Source: Escherichia coli
GTDB taxonomy: Bacteria > Pseudomonadota > Gammaproteobacteria > Enterobacterales > Enterobacteriaceae
NCBI RefSeq assembly: GCF_036507355.1
Contig: NZ_AP027877.1
DNA length: 64,000 nucleotides
Strand: one strand, 5' to 3'
The notes below the pieces were generated by a model. That model worked only from the letters and a program-made list of their open reading frames with translations, did no database searches and was not told where the DNA came from. Within the stretch, counting starts at the first letter, position 1. Every line of letters starts with the position of its first letter. The position numbers and the translations under genes were made by a program. Positions 3,951-63,923 of this stretch are shown here, piece after piece.

Positions 3951-5303
3951 ATGAGTTCTTTAAGTCAGGCTGCGAGCCGTGTGGAAAAACGCACGAATGC
4001 TCGTTACTGGATAGTGGTGATGTTGTTTATCGTCACATCCTTCAACTACGGCGACCGCGCTACGCTTTCTATTGCCGGTTCGGAAATGGCCAAAGATATC
4101 GGCCTTGATCCCGTGGGAATGGGCTATGTGTTCTCTGCCTTCTCATGGGCTTATGTTATCGGGCAGATCCCTGGTGGTTGGTTGCTGGATCGTTTTGGTT
4201 CAAAACGCGTCTACTTCTGGTCGATCTTTATCTGGTCGATGTTTACCTTGCTGCAAGGCTTCGTCGATATCTTTAGTGGATTCGGCATTATCGTTGCCCT
4301 GTTTACTCTGCGCTTCCTGGTCGGGCTTGCTGAAGCGCCATCTTTCCCCGGCAACAGTCGCATTGTTGCGGCCTGGTTTCCGGCGCAGGAAAGGGGAACG
4401 GCGGTGTCGATTTTTAACTCCGCTCAATACTTCGCAACGGTGATCTTCGCGCCGATTATGGGCTGGCTGACGCATGAAGTGGGCTGGTCACACGTCTTCT
4501 TCTTTATGGGCGGTCTGGGCATTGTCATCAGCTTTATCTGGTTGAAAGTCATCCACGAGCCAAATCAATATCCGGGGGTAAATCAGAAAGAGCTGGAGTA
4601 CATCGCCGCGGGTGGCGCGCTGATCAATATGGATCAGTAAAACACCAAAGTTAAAGTGCCGTTCAGCGTGAAGTGGGGGCAGATCAAACAACTGCTCGGG
4701 TCACGGATGATGATCGGCGTTTATATTGGTCAGTACTGTATCAACGCCCTGACTTACTTTTTCATTACCTGGTTTCCGGTTTATCTGGTGCAGGTGCGTG
4801 GGATGTCGATTCTGAAAGCGGGCTTTGTGGCTTCCGTTCCGGCGGTTTGCGGTTTTATCGGCGGTGTGCTGGGTGGGATTATTTCCGACTGGCTGATGCG
4901 CCGCACGGGATCGCTGAACATTGCGCGTAAAACACCGATCGTAATGGGCATGTTGCTGTCGATGGTGATGGTGTTCTGCAACTACGTCAACGTTGAGTGG
5001 ATGATCATCGGCTTTATGGCGCTGGCCTTCTTCGGTAAGGGCATTGGGGCGCTGGGTTGGGCAGTAATGGCAGATACCGCACCAAAAGAGATCAGCGGTC
5101 TTTCCGGTGGCCTGTTCAACATGTTCGGTAACATTTCTGGCATCGTCACGCCAATCGCAATTGGTTATATCGTTGGCACGACTGGCTCCTTTAATGGGGC
5201 GCTGATTTATGTTGGTGTTCATGCCTTAATCGCGGTACTGAGCTACCTGGTGCTGGTGGGCGATATCAAGCGTATCGAGCTGAAACCTGTCGCGGGGCAA
5301 TAA
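3951..5303 (+). pseudogene. gudP: Glucarate/galactarate MFS transporter GudP, interrupted by one in-frame TAA at 4638-4640
   Basis: Track ORFs 3951-4640 and 4656-5303 are in the same frame and together give a full 12-TM MFS protein; only one stop codon separates them. Confidence 0.75.
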
Positions 5304-22565: not shown

Positions 22566-22777
22566 GAGTTCCCCGCGCCAGCGGGGATAAACCGGAGAGA
22601 GTCCAGTATCAATCCCGCGATCCGCAGAGTTCCCCGCGCCAGCGGGGATAAACCGCCGTTGCGGATCTTGAGTAGTGCCACGTCACCGAGTTCCCCGCGC
22701 CAGCGGGGATAAACCGGGTACAAAAGAGGCCCCATTCTGGCAGGGCTCGAGTTCCCCGCGCCAGCGGGGATAAACCA
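22566..22777 (+). CRISPR. Type I-E CRISPR array: 4 repeats of 29 bp (GAGTTCCCCGCGCCAGCGGGGATAAACCG) and 3 spacers of 32 bp, AT-rich leader upstream
   Basis: Repeats at 22566, 22627, 22688 and 22749 (61-bp period); last repeat ends in A; degenerate repeat remnant near 22867-22888. Confidence 0.95.
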
Positions 22778-23244
22778 CCATATAACCCGTTATCTCTTTC
22801 TCAAGTTTTTATATTAGCAGTACTTGTAATAAGCAACATATCCACGTAACACCTCATGTTCAAAATAGTTCCCCATGCCAGATAAGTTCACAATTATCGA
22901 TACAAAAAATTAAATTTAATCAAAGTGTTATTTGTATAATTCTTAAGCCGTTAAGAAATTTTAATCTATTATTTTTTTAATATTAATTAATGCCTGTTAA
23001 TTTTTTCTTTAGTATAACAGTGTATTTTTTAAGCTTGTTATTCATTGATTAAGTAATAAATCTGGAAATTTGTCTTTGTTTTGAGGCTAATGAGTGGTTT
23101 TACATAACCGCCTCTATACGCTGTTGATGAATAGTTCTTATGAATAAAGATATCCAGTTCATACTTTAAGTGAAAATTGATAAAGTGCGATTCGTATTGT
23201 CTTTTATTCTAAAGACATCGAGTGTAGTTAATATTCCTTGTAAA

Positions 23245-23368
23245 AACAGGGATAAACCGAACTAGTTAAAGTTTTTATTATGTTCCCTGCATCAGCGGGG
23301 ATAAACCGGACTTGTTATCATTTTTTAAGTTGTCGAACTTATGTTCCCCGCGCCAGCGGGGATAACCA
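23245..23368 (+). CRISPR. Degenerate, vestigial CRISPR array (2-3 mutated repeats, one 32-bp spacer)
   Basis: Partial repeat ending ggataaaccg at 23259, mutated repeats at 23280-23308 and 23341-23368 flanking a 32-bp spacer. Confidence 0.7.
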
Positions 23369-23414
23369 TTCAGGTATGTTCAGGCCGGGCAGTTTCCCGC
23401 CCGGTTTTCCTCAC

Positions 23415-37956: not shown

Positions 37957-38219
37957 ATATTGCCGGATAAATTAAACGCCTCTGTCAGAAATGATGGGGG
38001 CGTTTTTATTTTGCGAGCAGCATTCCTGATTTTAAACGTGAACGCCGCTGGAAGAATTATCAGGTATAGAATGGCGTCGGGTGCTTGAGGCTGTCTGGCG
38101 TTAAGCATTCGCGAGGTTCCAGATGGACAAAAGCCCCAGGCGATATTTCTATCAACCTGAGGCTCGCGTTCGAACGTAGCAATTCGGATGTTAGTCTCTT
38201 CTTTGCAGGGAGGCAAGAC

Positions 38220-38372
38220 ATGCTAACAAAATATGCCCTTGTGGCAATCATAGTACTGTGTTGTACAGTACTGGGATTCACGCTCATGGTAGGCGACTCG
38301 TTATGTGAGTTGAATATCAGAGAGCGTGGTATGGAGTTTAAGGCAGTTCTCGCTTACGAATCGAAGAAGTAG
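38220..38372 (+). CDS. Hok/Gef-family type I toxin (50 aa)
   Basis: [50 protein letters not shown]: single TM segment then the SLCE..IR…AYES.K signature; AGGGAGG RBS 7 nt upstream. Confidence 0.75.
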
Positions 38373-38761
38373 CCACCACGTGGGGGTAAAACCCCGCGTA
38401 TTGAATTGTGATGGTTTGGTCTCCTGCACCCTTTTTTAAATTTATATTTTTTATGTGAATATATTGTCTCTATTTATTATTATGAATTTCAAATGAAAAT
38501 CATAAATTTATTCACAATATAAATGTTTTATTGGCTGATATATATCACAGATAATTTTTAAAATATGCGTAAATATCCTTTAAGTTTACTGAAGGATAAA
38601 AATATTGTGACTTTCTTTGATTTCTGGGGAAAAACCCGACGCGACGAGAAAGAAGGGGGTGACGACTATCACCTTCTTTGCTGGCATTCGCTGGATGTGG
38701 CCGCGATGGGCTATTTAATGGTTAAAAGAAATTGCTTCGGGCTGGCGGTAATGACTCCAAC

Positions 38762-39265
38762 TTATTGATAGTGTTTTATGTTCAGATAATGCCCGATGAC
38801 TTTGTCATGCAGCTCCACCGATTTTGAGAACGACAGCGACTTCCGTCCCAGCCGTGCCAGGTGCTGCCTCAGATTCAGGTTATGCCGCTCAATTCGCTGC
38901 GTATATCGCTTGCTGATTACGTGCAGCTTTCCCTTCAGGCGGGATTCATACAGCGGCCAGCCATCCGTCATCCATATCACCACGTCAAAGGGTGACAGCA
39001 GGCTCATAAGACGCCCCAGCGTCGCCATCGTGCGTTCACCGAATACGTGCGCAACAACCGTCTTCCGGAGCCTGTCATACGCGTAAAACAGCCAGCGCTG
39101 GCGCGATTTAGCCCCGACATAGCCCCACTGTTCGTCCATTTCCGCGCAGACGATGACGTCACTGCCCGGCTGTATGCGCGAGGTTACCGACTGCGGCCTG
39201 AGTTTTTTAAGTGACGTAAAATCGTGTTGAGGCCAACGCCCATAATGCGGGCTGTTGCCCGGCAT
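38762..39265 (-). CDS. insB: IS1 InsB (expressed as InsAB' by a -1 frameshift)
   Basis: 167-aa ORF overlapping insA in the -1 frame. Confidence 0.9.
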
Positions 39266-39459
39266 CCAACGCCATTCATGGCCATATCAATGATTTTCTG
39301 GTGCGTACCGGGTTGAGAAGCGGTGTAAGTGAACTGCAGTTGCCATGTTTTACGGCAGTGAGAGCAGAGATAGCGCTGATGTCCGGCGGTGCTTTTGCCG
39401 TTACGCACCACCCCGTCAGTAGCTGAACAGGAGGGACAGCTGATAGAAACAGAAGCCAC
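39184..39459 (-). CDS. insA: IS1 InsA
   Basis: 91-aa [26 protein letters not shown]…. Confidence 0.9.
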
Positions 39460-41451
39460 TGGAGCACCTCAAAAACACCATCATACACTAAATCAGTAAG
39501 TTGGCAGCATCACCCGGGCTGGCTGATTATTTTCGTCAATTAGGGATTTCTGACAAGGAACAGGCGGCTCAATTTTTCGCCTGGTTGTTGTGCTGGCACG
39601 ATATTGGAAAATTTGCCCGCTCATTTCAGCAACTTTACCTGCACCCACAACTCAAGGTTCCGGAAGGCGCAAGAAAGAATTACGAAAAGATCTCTCATTC
39701 AACGCTGGGCTACTGGTTGTGGCATCATTATTTAAGTGAATGCGAAGAATTGCTTCCTGCCTCTTCACTCTCTACTCGCAAACTTAAACGTGTAATAGCG
39801 ATGTGGATGCCCATGACTACCGGGCATCATGGTCGGCCCCCTGACCGTATTGATGAACTGGATAATTTTCTGCCTGAAGACAAAGTTGCCGCGCGAGATT
39901 TTCTCCTTGAAATCAAGGCACTGTGTCCGCTCATAGAGATTCCCACATTCTGGGATAATGACGAGGGAGTTGAACTTTTAAAACAACTTTCCTGGTATAT
40001 CTCTGCAACAGTCGTACTTGCAGACTGGACGGGTTCGTCAACGCGATTTTTTCCACGCGTCGCACACCCAATGGATATTAAAGATTACTGGCAGAAAACT
40101 TTAGTTCAGGCTCAAAACGCCTTAACCGTCTTTCCTCCAAAAGCAGAAACCGCACCTTTCACCGGAATTAATACGCTGTTTCCTTTTATTGAGCACCCGA
40201 CACCATTACAGCAAAAGGTGCTGGATCTGGATATCAGCCAGCCAGGGCCACAGTTATTTATTCTGGAAGACGTGACTGGCGCAGGTAAAACAGAAGCGGC
40301 GCTTATCCTGGCGCACAGGTTGATGGCTGCGAGGAAAGCACAGGGTTTGTTTTTTGGCCTGCCAACAATGGCAACGGCCAATGCCATGTACGATCGGCTG
40401 GTCAAAACCTGGCTTGCTTTCTATTCGCCAGAGTCCCGCCCCAGCCTGGTGCTGGCACACAGTGCCCGCACATTAATGGACCGCTTTAATGAATCACTCT
40501 GGTCCGGTGATTTAGTCGGGTCAGAAGAACCGGATGAACAAGCGTTCAGTCAAGGATGTGCAGCCTGGTTTGCCGACAGTAACAAGAAGGCTTTACTGGC
40601 TGAAATTGGCGTCGGCACGCTGGATCAGGCGATGATGGCGGTGATGCCGTTCAAACATAATAATCTGCGGCTTCTGGGGCTGAGTAACAAAATCCTGCTG
40701 GCTGATGAGATCCACGCCTGTGACGCTTACATGTCATGCATTCTTGAAGGGCTGATCGAGCGGCAGGCGCGTGGTGGAAACAGCGTCATTTTGCTTTCTG
40801 CTACGTTATCCCAACAGCAGCGCGACAAACTCGTCGCCGCCTTTGCGCGTGGCACAGAGGGCCAGCAAGAAGCTCCGTTCCTTGAAAAGGATGATTACCC
40901 CTGGCTGACGCATGTCACGAAATCCGATGTGAACTCACACCGGGTAGCGACGCGCAAAGACGTTGAGCGTAGCGTCAGCGTGGGTTGGCTTCATAGTGAA
41001 CAAGAGAGTATTGCGCGTATCGAATCGGCGGTAAGTCAGGGAAAATGCATCGCCTGGATCCGCAATTCTGTCGATGACGCTATTAAGGTTCATCGTCAGC
41101 TGCTTGCCCGCGGCGTCATTCCCGCTTCCAGCCTTTCACTCTTTCATAGCCGCTTTGCTTTTAGCGATCGCCAGCGAATCGAAACGGAAACGCTGGCACG
41201 CTTTGGTAAAAATTGTAATTTAAAAAGATCATCGCAAGTCATTGTTTGTACACAAGTAATTGAGCAAAGTGTGGATATTGACCTGGACGAAATGATCTCC
41301 GACCTTGCCCCCATTGATTTGCTGATCCAGCGAGCGGGGCGATTACAGCGACATATCCGCGATATTAATGGTCAGTTAAAGCGTGACGGAAAAGACGAGC
41401 GTTCCCCTCCTGAATTGCTGATTCTGGCCCCCGTCTGGGACGACGCTCCTG

Positions 41452-41781
41452 GTGACGAATGGTTCGGCAGTGCCATGCGTACGCGCCTTTACAGAGGCCG
41501 CGCTTAAAGTCTCACCAACCGGAAAACAAAACAGCTTTGCCAGCCGTGCCTACGCCTCCTGGGCGCTGGCGGAAAAAGGCACTGTTCAACCGCGTTCTCT
41601 GGCGGCGGCTTTCTATGAACCCATTAATGGTACCCGTCAGTTAGATGTGGCGGTGCAGCGTATTACAACGCTTCGCGAAAACATGAATACGGTCTACGAA
41701 CAGAAGACTGAATGCGCAAGTTTTGACGTGATGAACAAACAGGGAAGCATGAAGGACGTACTGGACTTTATCTGCGCGTAA
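41452..41781 (+). pseudogene. 3' remnant of a cas gene, most plausibly the end of cas7/casC fused out of frame to cas3
   Basis: 109-aa frame ending 10 bp before the cas5 ATG, the position casC occupies in an intact I-E operon; the alternative reading is a frameshifted cas3 tail. Confidence 0.4.
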
Positions 41782-41791
41782 GGGGCGGCTT

Positions 41792-42973
<1,182 letters not shown>

Positions 42974-43069
42974 GTTATGTGTTCTTTAAAAATAAGGAAA
43001 TGTTTGAATTTAGTTGGTAGATTGTTGATGTGGAATAAATTTGTTTAAAAACAGATATGTATGCTTAGT

Positions 43070-43281
43070 GTGTTCCCGGCGCCAGCGGGGATAAACCGAC
43101 GAGGGGCTCGTTATTCGGGAAATTACAAAAGTGTTCCCCGCGCCAGCGGGGATAAACCGGCCCAGGGATTTGTTCAATCCAGCGTGCCGCTGTGTTCCCC
43201 GCATCAGCGGGGATAAACCGGGCGCACTGGATGCGATGATGGATATCACTTAGAATTCCCCGCCCCTGCGGTAGAACTCCC
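43070..43281 (+). CRISPR. Type I-E CRISPR array next to cas2: 3 repeats GTGTTCCC(C/G)GCGCCAGCGGGGATAAACCG plus a degenerate terminal repeat, 3 spacers of 32 bp
   Basis: Repeats at 43070, 43131 and 43192, degenerate repeat at 43253; 61-bp period; AT-rich leader at 42974-43069. Confidence 0.95.
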
Positions 43282-55628: not shown

Positions 55629-57055
55629 TGGCATTTGATGATTTACGCAGCTTTTTACAGGCGCTTGATGACCACGGCCAGTTACTGAAAATCAGCGAAG
55701 AGGTGAACGCGGAACCGGATCTGGCAGCAGCAGCTAACGCCACCGGGCGTATCGGTGACGGCGCGCCCGCGCTGTGGTTTGATAATATTCGCGGCTTTAC
55801 CGATGCCCGCGTGGCAATGAACACCATCGGTTCCTGGCAGAACCACGCGATTTCCCTCGGCCTGTCGCCAAACACCCCGGTCAAAAAGCAGATTGATGAG
55901 TTTATCCGCCGCTGGGATAACTTCCCGATTGCCCCGGAGCGCCGCGCCAATCCAGCCTGGGCGCAGAACACCGTCGATGGCGACGAGATCAACCTGTTCG
56001 ATATCCTGCCGCTGTTTCGTTTAAACGATGGCGATGGCGGTTTCTATCTCGACAAAGCGTGCGTGGTTTCCCGCGATCCGCTCGACCCGGATAACTTCGG
56101 CAAGCAGAACGTCGGCATCTACCGCATGGAAGTGAAGGGCAAGCGTAAGCTCGGCCTGCAACCGGTGCCGATGCACGATATCGCCCTGCATCTGCATAAA
56201 GCGGAAGAGCGCGGTGAAGATCTGCCGATTGCGATCACGCTCGGTAACGATCCGATCATCACGCTGATGGGGGCCACGCCGCTGAAATACGAACAGTCTG
56301 AGTATGAAATGGCAGGTGCGCTGCGTGAAAGCCCGTACCCGATCGCCACCGCCCCGCTGACCGGTTTTGATGTGCCGTGGGGTTCAGAAGTGATCCTCGA
56401 AGGGGTCATCGAAAGCCGTAAACGCGAAATCGAAGGGCCGTTCGGTGAGTTTACCGGACACTACTCCGGCGGGCGTAACATGACCGTGGTGCGCATCGAT
56501 AAAGTCTCTTACCGCACCAGGCCGATTTTCGAATCGCTGTACCTCGGCATGCCGTGGACCGAAATCGACTACCTGATGGGGCCAGCCACCTGTGTGCCGC
56601 TGTATCAGCAACTTAAAGCCGAGTTCCCGGAAGTACAGGCGGTGAACGCCATGTACAACCACGGCCTGCTGGCGATTATCTCCACCAAAAAACGCTACGG
56701 CGGCTTTGCCCGCGCGGTGGGCCTGCGTGCGATGACCACGCCGCACGGTCTGGGCTACGTAAAGATGGTGATTATGGTCGATGAAGACGTTGACCCGTTC
56801 AACCTGCCGCAGGTGATGTGGGCGCTCTCCTCGAAAGTAAATCCGGCAGGGGATTTGGTGCAGTTGCCGAATATGTCCGTGCTGGAACTCGACCCTGGCT
56901 CAAGCCCGGCGGGGATCACCGACAAGCTGATTATCGACGCCACCACGCCTGTCGCCCCGGACAACCGTGGTCACTACAGCCAGCCGGTGGTGGATTTGCC
57001 GGAAACCAAAGCCTGGGCTGAAAAACTGACCGCTATGCTGGCCGCACGTAAATAA
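55628..57055 (+). CDS. ecdC: UbiD-family (prFMN-dependent) decarboxylase (YclC/EcdC)
   Basis: 475-aa ORF; TAATG overlap with ecdB. Confidence 0.85.
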   Translation: MAFDDLRSFLQALDDHGQLLKISEEVNAEPDLAAAANATGRIGDGAPALWFDNIRGFTDARVAMNTIGSWQNHAISLGLSPNTPVKKQIDEFIRRWDNFPIAPERRANPAWAQNTVDGDEINLFDILPLFRLNDGDGGFYLDKACVVSRDPLDPDNFGKQNVGIYRMEVKGKRKLGLQPVPMHDIALHLHKAEERGEDLPIAITLGNDPIITLMGATPLKYEQSEYEMAGALRESPYPIATAPLTGFDVPWGSEVILEGVIESRKREIEGPFGEFTGHYSGGRNMTVVRIDKVSYRTRPIFESLYLGMPWTEIDYLMGPATCVPLYQQLKAEFPEVQAVNAMYNHGLLAIISTKKRYGGFARAVGLRAMTTPHGLGYVKMVIMVDEDVDPFNLPQVMWALSSKVNPAGDLVQLPNMSVLELDPGSSPAGITDKLIIDATTPVAPDNRGHYSQPVVDLPETKAWAEKLTAMLAARK

Positions 57056-57065
57056 GGAGAACAAG

Positions 57066-57302
57066 ATGATTTGTCCACGTTGTGCCGATGAACAGATTGA
57101 AGTGATGGCGAAATCGCCGGTGAAAGATGTCTGGACGGTATATCAGTGCCAGCATTGCCTTTATACCTGGCGCGATACCGAACCGCTACGTCGCATCAGC
57201 CGCGAACATTATCCCGAAGCGTTCCGCATGACGCAGAAAGATATTGATGACGCGCCAATGGTGCCGAGCATTCCGCCGCTGCTGGCGGCAGATAAGCGCT
57301 AA
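57066..57302 (+). CDS. ecdD: Small zinc-ribbon subunit of the decarboxylase (BsdD/VdcD-like, EcdD)
   Basis: 78-aa ORF with CPRC…CQHC. Confidence 0.75.
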   Translation: MICPRCADEQIEVMAKSPVKDVWTVYQCQHCLYTWRDTEPLRRISREHYPEAFRMTQKDIDDAPMVPSIPPLLAADKR

Positions 57303-57310
57303 TAAAAAGT

Positions 57311-57338
57311 GCCGGGTAGTGGCTTTGCTTTACCCGGC
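57311..57338. terminator. Hairpin between the convergent ecdD and pphB
   Basis: gccgggta…tacccggc stem. Confidence 0.5.
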
Positions 57339-57342
57339 CTCA

Positions 57343-57999
57343 TTACTTTATTTTATAAAATGACAGCCGCCCGCTTTTCGGCGATCCGGTATCAATATAA
57401 ATCTGGTTAGCGAACGTCTGAATGTTATCAAGCATCATATGTCCAAATATAAAATAATCAGCGCCGTTTATTTGTTGTAACTCGCCATTAAGAGATTTCT
57501 GCACACGATCAACAGGCCAAAGTAATTCGCTCTCCGCTATTTGTTTGCCAAAGAGATATTCATTGCCCGGATAATCCGCATGTGCGATGACATATTTTAT
57601 AATGTCGTTGGTAATTTCAATAATATGTGGAAGTTGATGAAATTTCAGCAATAGACCTATAGCTTCTTTTTGTTCCATATCATTTAACTCAAAGAACCAG
57701 TCACCACCGCTGGCAAGCCACATATTGCCATCGCCGGTCGCGAACGCATCCAGCGCCATTGCTTCGTGGTTGCCTTTAACGGAGATAAACCAGGGCTGGT
57801 TTAGCAGGCGCAGGACGTCAAGACTCTCCGGCCCACGATCAATATTATCGCCGACAGAAATAAGTAAGTCGGTTTCGGGGAAAAAAGAGAGTTGATGTAA
57901 GCGGGATTGTAATAACTGATATTCACCATGAATATCACCAACGACCCATATATGGCGATAGTGATGGGCATTGATTTTTTGATAGCGTGTAGATGGCAT
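57343..57999 (-). CDS. pphB: Serine/threonine protein phosphatase 2 (PphB/PrpB)
   Basis: 218-aa ORF with metallophosphatase motifs GDIHG and GNHE. Confidence 0.9.
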   Translation of the reverse strand: MPSTRYQKINAHHYRHIWVVGDIHGEYQLLQSRLHQLSFFPETDLLISVGDNIDRGPESLDVLRLLNQPWFISVKGNHEAMALDAFATGDGNMWLASGGDWFFELNDMEQKEAIGLLLKFHQLPHIIEITNDIIKYVIAHADYPGNEYLFGKQIAESELLWPVDRVQKSLNGELQQINGADYFIFGHMMLDNIQTFANQIYIDTGSPKSGRLSFYKIK

Positions 58000-60666: not shown

Positions 60667-60952
60667 GGGGTTATGTCCGGTTCCCTGATATTAAATGGGG
60701 TGTGATGGTTTTTATTTTCGTTGTAATCACATAAGGCGCACATGATACCGGAGTTAATCATTTCAGGGGAAGAAGCGAACGGCGAGTTCTTGATGCTGGT
60801 TCCGGGAAAGATGCTGTTTTGCAGCTTTTGCGTGATGCTTATGAAGCAAGTACGCAAAATTGCGTCGGTTGAATAAACCTCCTCCTTCAGAGCCATAGTC
60901 CCCTTTCAAATTAAGTTGTAGTATAAATACACCTTAAGAGTATGGAGGCAGC

Positions 60953-61297
60953 ATGTCCGGCAAGCGTATCTCTCGTGAAAAACTGACGATTAAAAAAATG
61001 ATCGATCTTTATCAAGCGAAATGCCCGCAGGCGTCAGCGGAGCCGGAGCATTACGAGGCGTTGTTTGTTTACGCGCAAAAGCGGCTGGATAAATGTGTGT
61101 TCGGCGAAGAGAAGCCAGCCTGTAAGCAGTGTCCGGTGCACTGTTACCAGCCTGCAAAGCGTGAGGAGATGAAACAGATTATGCGTTGGGCCGGGCCGAG
61201 AATGCTGTGGCGTCATCCGATCTTAACCGTGCGTCATCTCATCGATGACAAGCGTCCGGTGCCAGAGTTGCCAGAAAAATATCGTCCAAAGAAATAA
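60953..61297 (+). CDS. ygbA: Nitrous-oxide-stimulated promoter family protein YgbA
   Basis: 114-aa Cys-rich ORF. Confidence 0.8.
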   Translation: MSGKRISREKLTIKKMIDLYQAKCPQASAEPEHYEALFVYAQKRLDKCVFGEEKPACKQCPVHCYQPAKREEMKQIMRWAGPRMLWRHPILTVRHLIDDKRPVPELPEKYRPKK

Positions 61298-61335
61298 ATC
61301 TGCCGGAGAGCCATACTCTCCGGCAAATAAGGCGC

Positions 61336-61764
61336 TTACGTTTTGGTAGCAATCAGGATTGCTGATGCTTTGATCAACGCAATAACGCGTGAGCCAGTGG
61401 TAAGTTTCATTTCATCCTGACTTTCATTTGTTACCACTGCCACAATTTCAAAACCCGCATCCGTTTTGATATGGACAGTGGCGTTCACTGCGCCTTCGGT
61501 GATTGTCGACACGCTGCCAGCAAACTGGTTGCGAGCAGAGAATTTCAGTCCACAGTCTTCCGTGGCCAGCGTTACCCACGGGGCTTTAATCAGGGCAATC
61601 GCTTCTTTCCCTTTTGCCAGCCCCAGAGCCTGTTGGCTGCTGTGTGTAACAATCGCCACCAGTTTTGCACCACCTGCCAGCGTCAGTTCTACTTCGTCAT
61701 TCACCGCGCCCATTGCTACTGCGCTAACTGTTCCGGTTAATTGATTTCTTGCTGAAACTGCCAT
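61336..61764 (-). CDS. Tandem TOBE (Mop-like molbindin) domain protein
   Basis: Start placed at MAVSARNQ (ATG 61764) after an AAGGAGG RBS; two repeated halves (ARNQLTGTVS / ARNQFAGSVS); 45 bp downstream of the fhlA stop on the same strand. Confidence 0.7.
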   Translation of the reverse strand: MAVSARNQLTGTVSAVAMGAVNDEVELTLAGGAKLVAIVTHSSQQALGLAKGKEAIALIKAPWVTLATEDCGLKFSARNQFAGSVSTITEGAVNATVHIKTDAGFEIVAVVTNESQDEMKLTTGSRVIALIKASAILIATKT

Positions 61765-61808
61765 ACTGCCTCCTTTCATTGAATGTTGATCGAGTATAAC
61801 CACATCTG

Positions 61809-63923
61809 TTAAATCAATGCCGATTTATCAATTCCCAGTCGCTTCATCCGTGACAGCAGGGTCGTGCGTTTCAGCCCCAGACGTTGCGCAGCGCCTTTAG
61901 GCCCGGCAACCACGCCGTTAGTTTCTTTCAGCACGCGAACAATCAACTGATATTCATCTTCGCCCTCCTGAGCGACAACCGTTGCGGCAGGCGGCGTTTC
62001 AGGCTCCGGTAAAGCAATATCTGGCAATGACAGCTGCAGCACGTTGCCGCGTGTTAGCAATACCGCGCGCTCAATGACGTTTTCCAGTTCGCGTACGTTA
62101 CCCGGCCACTCCATATTGCTCAAGGTGCGCAACGTCTCGGCAGGAATGCTGTCGATATTGCGCCCCAGACGACGGGCAATTTTGAAGGTAAAGGCTTTCG
62201 CCAGCAGCGGAATATCTTCCGGACGCTCGCGTAGTGGCGGAAGGTGAATCGGGAATACGTTCAGGCGGTAATAGAGATCGCTACGGAACTCACGGTCGGC
62301 GACCATTTTTTTCAGATCGCGGTTAGTCGCGGCGATTAGACGCACGTCCGTCTGAATGATTTTGTTGCTGCCGAGGCGTTCAAACTCCTGTTCCTGCAAT
62401 ACACGCAGCAACTTCGGCTGTAACTCCAGTGGCATATCGCCCACTTCGTCGAGGAACAGGGAGCTTTTATCCGCCAGTTCAAAACGACCGATACGCTGGG
62501 CGCTGGCACCGGTAAAAGCCCCACGCTCATGACCAAACAGATCGCTCTCCAGCAATCCGGCAGGCATCGCCGCGCAGTTCATTTTGACCATGCGGCGATT
62601 ATTACGCCCACTGAGATTATGGATAGCACGGGCAATCAGCTCTTTACCCGTGCCAGTTTCACCGAGGATCAGCACGGTACTGTCACTTTGCGCCACCATT
62701 TCAACTTGTTTAAGCACGCTGTACATGGCTTCGCTGCGGCCAATAATCTCGCCAAATTCACTATCAACATTGTTGAGCTGCTCGGTCAGGGCGAGGTTTT
62801 CATCAACCAGCCGTTCTTTCAGACGATGGATTTCCTGATAGGCGAGGGCGTTATCGACAGCGATTGCCACACGTTCGGCAATCTGGCGCAGTAAATTCAG
62901 ATTGGTAGTGGTAAACACTTTCTCTTCACATTGCGCCAGTTTCAGCACGCCCAGCATGGTGTCGCCAGACATCAGCGGTAACAGGCACAAGGTTTGAATC
63001 TGGTTGCCCCAGGTGTCGAACAACATGCGTTCATAGGGGGCTAAATCATCCCGCTCGTGGAGATTAATCAGCAGCATCTCTTTACTTTTGAACACGCGTT
63101 CGGTGAGGGTTCCGGCTTCATCGACTTCGCTCTGTTCGTGGGCGGGATGCTGTTTATCAAGATAGTGAGTGGAGTAGATGTTGAGTTTGTTTTTACGGTG
63201 GCTGCGTAAGACGATACTGATATCGTCAATATCGAAATAGTAATGGATTTCTTTGGCGACTTCGCTGACCAGTTCGTCCATATCCAGGCGGGAAAGCACC
63301 GCGTTGGTGATGGCGACCAGGATGCGGAAGTTATCGCGTTCCCGGCATAACAACTCATAGTCGACATTGTTAACGACGCGACTCTGGATTTGTTCGGTGA
63401 CGACAGAAACGATCTGCGTAAATGTTTGCAGACGATTGAACTCTTTTTCGCTCCAGGGGCGATCGTCATAACGAATAAATTCACAGCCACCAAAAATATG
63501 CCCTTCCGCCGCCAGTGGCATCAGGCAATAGTGAGCAAATTTTGGGTATAGCCCACCTGCGGCCAGCTGCGGCCAGGTTTCACAAAATTCTTCGTAACTG
63601 CAATGCAGCGTATCAGGGCGCGACAAAATGCTGCGTACCGGACCGTGTGCCAGAACAGTTTCGTCTTCATATTTAATGGGGGTGTCTTTTTCACGCGATG
63701 CGTAATAAGACGCACGTTGAGTCTGCGCTTGCCACAACACAATAGCCGCGTTGTCGGCGAGCGCAGAACGCTTTACCAGTTGCGAAAGAGCCTCACACAG
63801 CGAGGCCAGATCGGGCTGCTGCAATAGTGTCCGAGTGATGTCGAACAACCCTTGCTGTCCGAGATCACTCATCGGTGTATATGACATTTTGTTCTTCCAG
63901 GAAAGCACCGCAAAGCGGTGCAA
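61809..63923 (-). CDS. fhlA: Formate hydrogenlyase transcriptional activator FhlA (sigma-54-dependent)
   Basis: 704-aa ORF with GAF, AAA+ (GETGTGKE, GAFTGA) and HTH regions. Confidence 0.95.
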   Translation of the reverse strand: MHRFAVLSWKNKMSYTPMSDLGQQGLFDITRTLLQQPDLASLCEALSQLVKRSALADNAAIVLWQAQTQRASYYASREKDTPIKYEDETVLAHGPVRSILSRPDTLHCSYEEFCETWPQLAAGGLYPKFAHYCLMPLAAEGHIFGGCEFIRYDDRPWSEKEFNRLQTFTQIVSVVTEQIQSRVVNNVDYELLCRERDNFRILVAITNAVLSRLDMDELVSEVAKEIHYYFDIDDISIVLRSHRKNKLNIYSTHYLDKQHPAHEQSEVDEAGTLTERVFKSKEMLLINLHERDDLAPYERMLFDTWGNQIQTLCLLPLMSGDTMLGVLKLAQCEEKVFTTTNLNLLRQIAERVAIAVDNALAYQEIHRLKERLVDENLALTEQLNNVDSEFGEIIGRSEAMYSVLKQVEMVAQSDSTVLILGETGTGKELIARAIHNLSGRNNRRMVKMNCAAMPAGLLESDLFGHERGAFTGASAQRIGRFELADKSSLFLDEVGDMPLELQPKLLRVLQEQEFERLGSNKIIQTDVRLIAATNRDLKKMVADREFRSDLYYRLNVFPIHLPPLRERPEDIPLLAKAFTFKIARRLGRNIDSIPAETLRTLSNMEWPGNVRELENVIERAVLLTRGNVLQLSLPDIALPEPETPPAATVVAQEGEDEYQLIVRVLKETNGVVAGPKGAAQRLGLKRTTLLSRMKRLGIDKSALI

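Follow-up and report, generated by a model that had tools for sequence, protein, structure and literature searches.

The window, the whole stretch of 64,000 nucleotides of Escherichia coli DNA analysed here, carries a small gene immediately downstream of fhlA. The fhlA gene itself occupies 61809..63887 on the minus strand, matching the profile NF011958 with 1546 bits and K-12 fhlA with 98.9% nucleotide identity. It is followed, after a 44-nt spacer without a terminator (61765..61808, minus strand), by the coding sequence of a ModG-like protein of 142 aa with two Mop domains (61336..61764 including the stop codon, minus strand; hereafter the TOBE gene), which was delimited from the open reading frame list and from profile matches. 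The reading frame runs from the ATG at 61764-61762 to the TAA at 61338-61336 and comprises 142 codons. Beyond the TOBE gene, ygbA converges on it from the plus strand (60953..61297), encoding 114 aa in the window and 117 aa in K-12, and mutS comes after ygbA in the gene order of the window.

The original prediction of a gene at 61336-61764 agrees with an open reading frame of 142 aa at exactly those coordinates on the minus strand. The strong ribosome-binding site that it described is AAGGAGG at 61769-61775 (minus strand), which can be read directly from the sequence 4 nt 5' of the ATG, and a GGAGG or GGAGA core stands at the same position in nearly all orthologs. The gene was also correctly placed on the strand of fhlA and next to it, but the distance given, 45 bp past the fhlA stop, is one too many for a spacer of 44 nt. 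An alternative start codon, GTG at 61803, would give 155 aa; it appears in the program-made list of open reading frames and is used in some GenBank records. This start was rejected in favour of the ATG because of the ribosome-binding site, the length of 142 aa in 46 of 49 orthologs, and an N-terminus that aligns to ModG and Tub without gaps, starting at residue 1. Two open reading frames on the opposite strand, 61466..61744 and 61471..61740 (plus), were taken as chance frames opposite a conserved gene.

The gene is already known, being a routine RefSeq annotation and belonging to a structurally characterised family. The window allele equals WP_000301062.1 except for A142T; that accession, named ‘TOBE domain-containing protein’, is the RefSeq annotation of the gene in E. 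coli 14EC033 and in ST131. Names in other records vary and include ‘molybdopterin-binding protein’, ‘molybdenum-pterin-binding protein’, ‘transporter’ and ‘molybdate transport system regulatory protein’. The literature searched yielded no functional study of the enterobacterial protein; its only mention was a synteny remark in a 2020 paper, where a gene between fhlA and ygbA in some Escherichia was noted and labelled “modE” (PMC7232297). This label is a misannotation, as the DNA-binding half of ModE is missing.

Domains, fold and ligand positions

The two Mop/TOBE repeats that had been proposed for the protein were recovered in profile searches. Pfam PF03459 (TOBE) matches in two stretches (E 8.8e-35, 119.2 bits against a cutoff of 22.3), as does NCBIfam TIGR00638 (Mop, molybdenum-pterin binding domain; E 4.1e-42, 142 bits against a cutoff of 55). 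The protein consists of these two tandem Mop domains alone; the Pfam and NCBIfam profiles identified no other domain in its 142 residues, and in particular no DNA-binding (HTH) or ATPase domain. Domain 1 comprises residues 1-69 (61558..61764, minus strand), with the Pfam stretch covering residues 4-66, and aligns gap-free to residues 1-70 of Tub and 4-72 of ModG. Its motifs are S4-A-R6-N-Q, G19-A20-V21-N22, T40-x-x-S43 and K60-A61. Domain 2, delimited by profile matches and the ortholog alignment, comprises residues 73-142 (61339..61548, minus strand) and repeats this set at +72 as S76-A-R78-N-Q, G91-A92-V93-N94, T112-x-x-S115 and K132-A133.

The oxyanion sites of this family have been described in Tub, where Ala20-Val21-Asn22 form a site on the threefold axis, and Ser4, Arg6, Lys60 and Ala61, together with Ser40 of the neighbouring subunit, form a buried interface site; both have been likened to the sites of ModG, Mop and ModE (PMC11980592). 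Equivalents of the interface (type-2) ligands are complete in both domains of the window protein (S4/R6/T40/K60/A61 and S76/R78/T112/K132/A133), and the A-V-N turn of the threefold-axis (type-1) site is present and conserved in both (A20-V21-N22 and A92-V93-N94). Across 22 orthologs with identity down to 40%, the ligand columns of both domains are invariant or nearly so.

An AlphaFold2 model of the monomer, built from the alignment of 22 orthologs, has a pLDDT of 95.7 and was matched by Foldseek to ModG (PDB 1H9J) with a TM-score of 0.95, an rmsd of 1.3 Å and 48% identity. In phmmer, the same structure is matched at E 5.8e-33 over residues 1-139, followed in the ranking by the di-Mop region of ModE (E 1e-15) and then by the single-domain proteins Tub and MopII. 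The ligand sets, the fold and the missing HTH and ATPase domains thus mark the protein, as judged from its sequence and structural model, as a ModG-type molbindin, neither ModE nor a transporter subunit.

ModG of Azotobacter vinelandii (PDB 1H9J, 1H9K and 1H9M) is likewise a cytoplasmic protein of ∼142 aa with two tandem Mop domains, and both proteins carry the SARN, GAVN, T/S-x-x-S/A and KA motifs in each domain. According to a passage of PMC11980592 that cites earlier work, A. vinelandii modG lies in the mod (molybdate transport) locus, is controlled by ModE and contributes to the molybdenum supply of nitrogenase. The context of the window gene is different: it follows the hyp genes and fhlA, has ygbA beyond it and has no mod neighbours. 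In contrast to the ModE-controlled, nitrogenase-linked modG, it has no recognisable ModE operator in the 100 nt upstream, and its host is no nitrogen fixer. The ModG trimer holds eight oxyanions, and this arrangement can be carried over to the window protein by analogy. It would then most likely assemble as a trimer, that is, a pseudo-hexamer of Mop domains, with room for as many as eight molybdate or tungstate oxyanions, of which two would sit on the threefold axis and six at buried interfaces. The backbone of the A-V-N turn would provide the axial sites, and the S-A-R-N-Q, T-x-x-S and K-A motifs the interface sites.

The di-Mop region of E. coli ModE (PDB 1H9R, 1H9S and 1O7L) shares the two-domain Mop fold with the window protein (TM 0.88-0.90, ∼35% identity), and its domain 1 ligands S126, R128, T163, S166, K183 and A184 have equivalents in domain 1 of the window protein. 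However, the second Mop domain of ModE lacks the ligand motifs (ADNQ, no TxxS, no KA), whereas domain 2 of the window protein has the full set, and ModE possesses an N-terminal winged-helix DNA-binding domain that the window protein does not. The ModE profile NF007957 reaches 88.1 bits, well short of its cutoff of 369, in an alignment confined to ModE positions 124-261. With a score so far under the cutoff and the HTH missing, identity with ModE was ruled out. The TOBE protein is additional to ModE, whose gene occurs in 5391 of 5426 complete E. coli genomes (99%). Identity with ModC or another ABC ATPase was also dismissed, since the N-terminal ATPase is missing; ModC and WtpC profiles match with their C-terminal 60-70 positions alone and score far under their cutoffs.

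The remaining relatives are the single-domain hexameric molbindins, namely Mop or MopII of Clostridium pasteurianum, Haemophilus influenzae and Sporomusa ovata and Tub of Eubacterium limosum (PDB 1GUG, 1FR3 and 9BEB). Each half of the window protein aligns gap-free with these proteins of ∼70 aa, with ∼40% identity to Tub and identical ligand numbering. While the single-domain molbindins are hexamers of one-domain subunits, the domains are fused in the window protein, and three chains would make the equivalent particle. The function presumed for both, by analogy, is the storage of oxyanions.

Distribution, ancestry and the K-12 deletion

A scan for orthologs in one genome per species returned 49 loci with the TOBE gene. 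In 38 of these, fhlA is directly upstream on the same strand. The linked loci span a dozen named enterobacterial genera as well as unclassified Enterobacteriaceae, and include E. albertii, Escherichia sp., Citrobacter, Pseudocitrobacter, Klebsiella, Raoultella, Kluyvera, Enterobacter, Pluralibacter, Yokenella, Lelliottia and Kosakonia. The spacer between fhlA and the TOBE gene measures 36-56 nt in 35 of the 38 linked loci and 74-101 nt in the other three, and ygbA is often found in convergent orientation just past the TOBE gene. The identity of the TOBE gene drops with phylogenetic distance, in step with that of fhlA. No Salmonella genome was among those recovered by the scan; in that genus ygbA is depicted beside fhlA (PMC7232297). 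The shared position between fhlA and ygbA across genera indicates that the arrangement is ancestral in Enterobacteriaceae and that the K-12 state is a deletion.

The TOBE gene also occurs away from fhlA. Either fhlA or the entire hyp-fhlA block is absent upstream in five loci (L014, L030, L035, L040 and L047); the whole block was replaced in two loci that kept the TOBE gene, and hypE is immediately followed by the TOBE gene, without fhlA, in Phytobacter and Kosakonia sp. S29. In Serratia, Cedecea and Edwardsiella the gene stands alone in unrelated contexts. Its retention without fhlA in several lineages shows that its function does not strictly depend on FhlA.

Remnants of the fhlA 3' end, ...KMGMDKQAMT and ...MKRLGINKNELV, each closed by a stop codon, precede the intact TOBE gene in the loci from which fhlA was deleted, that is, the Phytobacter and Kosakonia sp. 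S29 loci L035, L040 and L047 (positions 4866-5000) and L014 (upstream of position 5001). Locus L014, from the Raoultella/Klebsiella/Enterobacter group, additionally contains a four-gene ABC transporter between the TOBE gene and ygbA, at about 5.6-9.1 kb in the locus. Read from its open reading frames, this insert encodes a binding protein, an ATPase and two permeases and is sitABCD-like; loci L016, L018 and L021 probably hold the same insert, to judge by ygbA lying ∼4 kb downstream of the TOBE gene. An arrangement with sitABCD at fhlA/mutS has been described and matches this Klebsiella-type insert (PMC7232297).

Within E. coli, the gene is present in 1892 of 5426 complete genomes (35%), always in single copy and on the chromosome. 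Carriers include SMS-3-5 as well as ST131, ST95 and other extraintestinal pathogenic lineages; the remaining genomes, K-12 derivatives and O157:H7 EC4115 among them, show the K-12-type junction. The original prediction gave K-12 no gene between fhlA and ygbA, and indeed the two stop codons are 36 nt apart in MG1655 with nothing annotated between them. Alignment shows that 473 nt, comprising the spacer and the TOBE coding sequence, are missing in MG1655, where fhlA leads straight into a hairpin terminator. Spacer and gene have been cleanly deleted in K-12 and in ∼65% of sequenced E. coli. The gene is no novelty of this strain; it represents the ancestral state in Enterobacteriaceae, which the K-12 lineage lost. 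The boundary of the deletion also changes the 3' end of ygbA in K-12, adding three C-terminal residues (117 versus 114 aa). The two YgbA lengths correspond to two separate NCBIfam equivalog models for this protein.

The gene is live and under strong purifying selection across Enterobacteriaceae. Exactly 142 aa and a start of the form M-x-V/I-SARNQ are found in 46 of the 49 loci. Of the other three, two are distant homologs that measure 143 and 140 aa and the third is a shortened copy; the architecture of two Mop domains is identical in all orthologs. The shortened copy comes from Enterobacter sp. EA-1 (L045), in which fhlA and the TOBE gene are both truncated. Comparisons with other genera give a dN/dS of 0.04-0.10. 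The window allele differs from the common E. coli allele (ST131) at 16 nucleotides, 15 of them synonymous (dN 0.003, dS 0.153; fhlA dS 0.128). The GC content of the gene is 49.9%, that of the window 51.2%.

Transcription and proposed function

In K-12, the hyp-fhlA unit is transcribed from an FhlA/sigma-54 promoter before hypA and from an FNR-dependent promoter inside the operon. A terminator scan of the 44-nt spacer (61765-61808) in the window returned no terminator-like site, and the spacer folds at the level of shuffled sequence (z -0.09). The sole strong terminator follows the TOBE gene: an intrinsic terminator with a 14-bp stem and a U-rich tail at 61298..61328 (minus strand), where it separates the stop codons of the TOBE gene and of the convergent ygbA (dG -23.1 kcal/mol, z -4.62). 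This terminator (window 61285-61345) is a diverged homolog of the one that follows fhlA in K-12 (L002:6415-6480), from which it differs by compensatory changes in the stem (GCCGGAGAG/CTCTCCGGC versus GCCGGACAG/CTGTCCGGC). With the spacer free of terminators and the homologous terminator placed after the gene, the simplest reading of these signals would make the TOBE gene the final cistron of the hyp-fhlA unit, co-transcribed with fhlA as the original prediction proposed.

The spacer also contains a TATACT box within GGTTATACT (61793..61798, minus strand), 34 nt upstream of the ATG, which is conserved and may be the -10 element of a weak promoter belonging to the gene. The corresponding consensus GGYTATAMW is located at -34 in Escherichia, Citrobacter, Pseudocitrobacter and Pluralibacter and at -46 in Kluyvera, and is kept downstream of an extra terminator-like hairpin in Lelliottia and Enterobacter soli; it is absent in Klebsiella and Raoultella, whose spacer is 38 nt. 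No -35 element stands at a usable spacing from the box, and a sigma-70 consensus scan called no promoter in the spacer. A sigma-54 promoter (TGGCAC-N5-TTGCW, up to 2 mismatches) was ruled out, with no match in 61765-61808 and 43 matches in the window against 45 expected by chance.

Control by ModE was examined with three operator patterns in the 100 nt upstream of the gene in the window and its 49 orthologs, after the operator of K-12 modA, CGTTATAT-N7-TACATAACG, had been confirmed from sequence. No convincing operator (TATAT-N7-TAYAT) was found there: the best match in the window has 3 mismatches in 10 positions and falls within the coding end of fhlA, and match positions are inconsistent among species, with a slight excess over background that fits AT-rich spacers. 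A ModE operator upstream of the TOBE gene was rejected on the grounds of these mismatches and inconsistent positions. Rfam models at the gathering threshold detected CsrB and sok alone in the window, both far from the TOBE locus.

These features are consistent with a cytoplasmic protein, small and soluble, in which two Mop/TOBE domains are fused and which, as a ModG-type molbindin, would buffer or store molybdate inside the cell. Expressed probably as the final gene of the hypABCDE-fhlA unit, with a possible contribution from a weak promoter of its own, it would be made under anaerobic, formate-inducing conditions, the same conditions under which the molybdo-selenoenzyme formate dehydrogenase H (FDH-H) is formed. 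It would plausibly secure molybdate for FDH-H and other molybdoenzymes in anaerobic growth. That the gene encodes a ModG-type cytoplasmic buffer or store of molybdate or tungstate, made together with the genes for hydrogenase maturation and for the activator of formate hydrogenlyase (FHL), is held with good confidence. The analysis itself establishes the domains, the fold, ligand conservation, synteny, purifying selection, the K-12 deletion and the terminator-free spacer; we infer the trimer, the binding of oxyanions, joint transcription with fhlA and a physiological tie to FHL or to the supply of FDH-H. K-12 and most E. coli possess an active formate hydrogenlyase without the gene, which is thus dispensable for the pathway in the laboratory.

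As an alternative, transcription could come mainly from a promoter in the spacer, the position after fhlA being historical and not functional. The conserved GGYTATAMW box some 34-46 nt before the ATG in Escherichia, Citrobacter, Pluralibacter and Kluyvera speaks for this arrangement, as do its retention past the added hairpin of Lelliottia and Enterobacter soli and the solitary homologs of Serratia, Cedecea and Edwardsiella. Nevertheless, the box comes with no -35 element, consensus promoter call, sigma-54 site or ModE operator and is missing in Klebsiella and Raoultella, so that a mainly independent promoter is possible but doubtful; it can also coexist with read-through from fhlA. A chiefly regulatory protein, acting as a free-standing molybdate sensor on FhlA or ModE or competing for molybdate, would give carriers a different response of hyc and fdhF to molybdate. 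Expression of hyc and fdhF in K-12 reportedly depends on molybdate through ModE and MoeA, according to the Shanmugam laboratory. The TOBE gene adjoins the regulatory gene fhlA in many genera, its product is homologous to the di-Mop sensor domain of ModE (E 1e-15, TM 0.89), and ModG has been called a ‘molybdate homeostasis regulator’ (PMC11980592). However, similarity to ModG far exceeds that to ModE (116.6 versus 60.6 bits), both domains retain the full ligand sets of the storage-type pattern, which the second domain of ModE lost, and the gene survives where fhlA is absent; a mainly regulatory role is accordingly rated unlikely. Slightly less credit still is given to a molybdate- or tungstate-sensing accessory of the FHL regulon that gates the activation of hyc and fdhF by FhlA or ModE, or that sequesters tungstate. 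Were the accessory role true, tungstate sequestration would spare FDH-H from mis-metallation, and the two-thirds of E. coli without the gene, including K-12, the basis of all models of FHL regulation, would be wired differently from extraintestinal pathogenic E. coli and most other Enterobacteriaceae.

Two further alternatives concern the origin and the state of the gene. The interval between fhlA and mutS is a known hotspot of island gain and loss (PMC7232297), and the gene is confined to 35% of E. coli genomes, as might be expected of a recent horizontal insertion in this lineage with K-12 as the original empty site. Against such an insertion, the same position is occupied in E. albertii, Citrobacter, Klebsiella, Kluyvera, Enterobacter and others with identities that track fhlA, dS against ST131 (0.153) is near that of fhlA (0.128), GC content is native, and mobile-element features are missing. 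The K-12 junction also retains the homologous terminator, as a deletion predicts. Synteny and selection data effectively refute horizontal acquisition, which is judged very improbable. Even less credible is a decaying, functionless fragment such as the remains of a duplicated modE or modC, an idea that gains from the alignment with the C-terminal half of ModE alone and from records that call the protein ‘modE’, ‘transporter’ or ‘molybdate transport system regulatory protein’. It is contradicted by the selection data: the dN/dS of 0.04-0.10, the fixed length of 142 aa and the invariant ligand columns do not fit a relic, nor do the strong, conserved ribosome-binding site, the confident ModG-like model and the restriction of truncation to one of 49 loci (L045).

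The original interpretation is upheld on each point open to checking: the tandem Mop/TOBE protein, its place directly after fhlA on the same strand and the empty site in K-12. The significance of a ModG-type molbindin at this locus is modest. Classical E. coli work on the molybdate control of FHL and on molybdenum homeostasis used K-12, which is without the gene, and the residual interest lies in a strongly conserved, predicted molybdenum-binding protein tied to the FHL regulon and absent from the model strain.

Other features of the window

Relative to 14EC033, the window shows ∼98% identity overall and 99.8% across the TOBE segment. Within the mutS-rpoS polymorphic region, the stretch at ∼55946-57344 contains hydroxyarylic acid decarboxylase genes, and the ygbI-ygbN block of 14EC033 is missing, with the join at ∼57314-57344. 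Between ygbA and mutS, a 44-aa open reading frame at 60742-60876 (plus strand) corresponds to the hypothetical protein WP_000611932.1 of 14EC033, and the same segment is the part of the ygbA-mutS interval most divergent from K-12.

The CsrB sRNA is found at 1536-1895 (Rfam, 384 bits). A decayed type I-E CRISPR-Cas locus lies at 38747-43220, between cysH and iap. There, an IS1 copy (38747-39516) abuts a cas3-like open reading frame with HD and C-terminal domains (39501-41507). Next come fragments of Cas7/CT1975 (41452-41781) and Cas1 (41820-42683) and only three CRISPR repeats (43072-43220); the Cascade genes have apparently been deleted. Beside the IS1 and cas remnant, the Rfam sok antitoxin RNA at 38079-38235 (105 bits) marks a hok/sok toxin-antitoxin locus. 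A second CRISPR array, with the E. coli I-E repeat, spans 22568-23369 and consists of four regular repeats at 22568-22777 and, after a gap of ∼500 nt, two degenerate repeats at 23282-23369.
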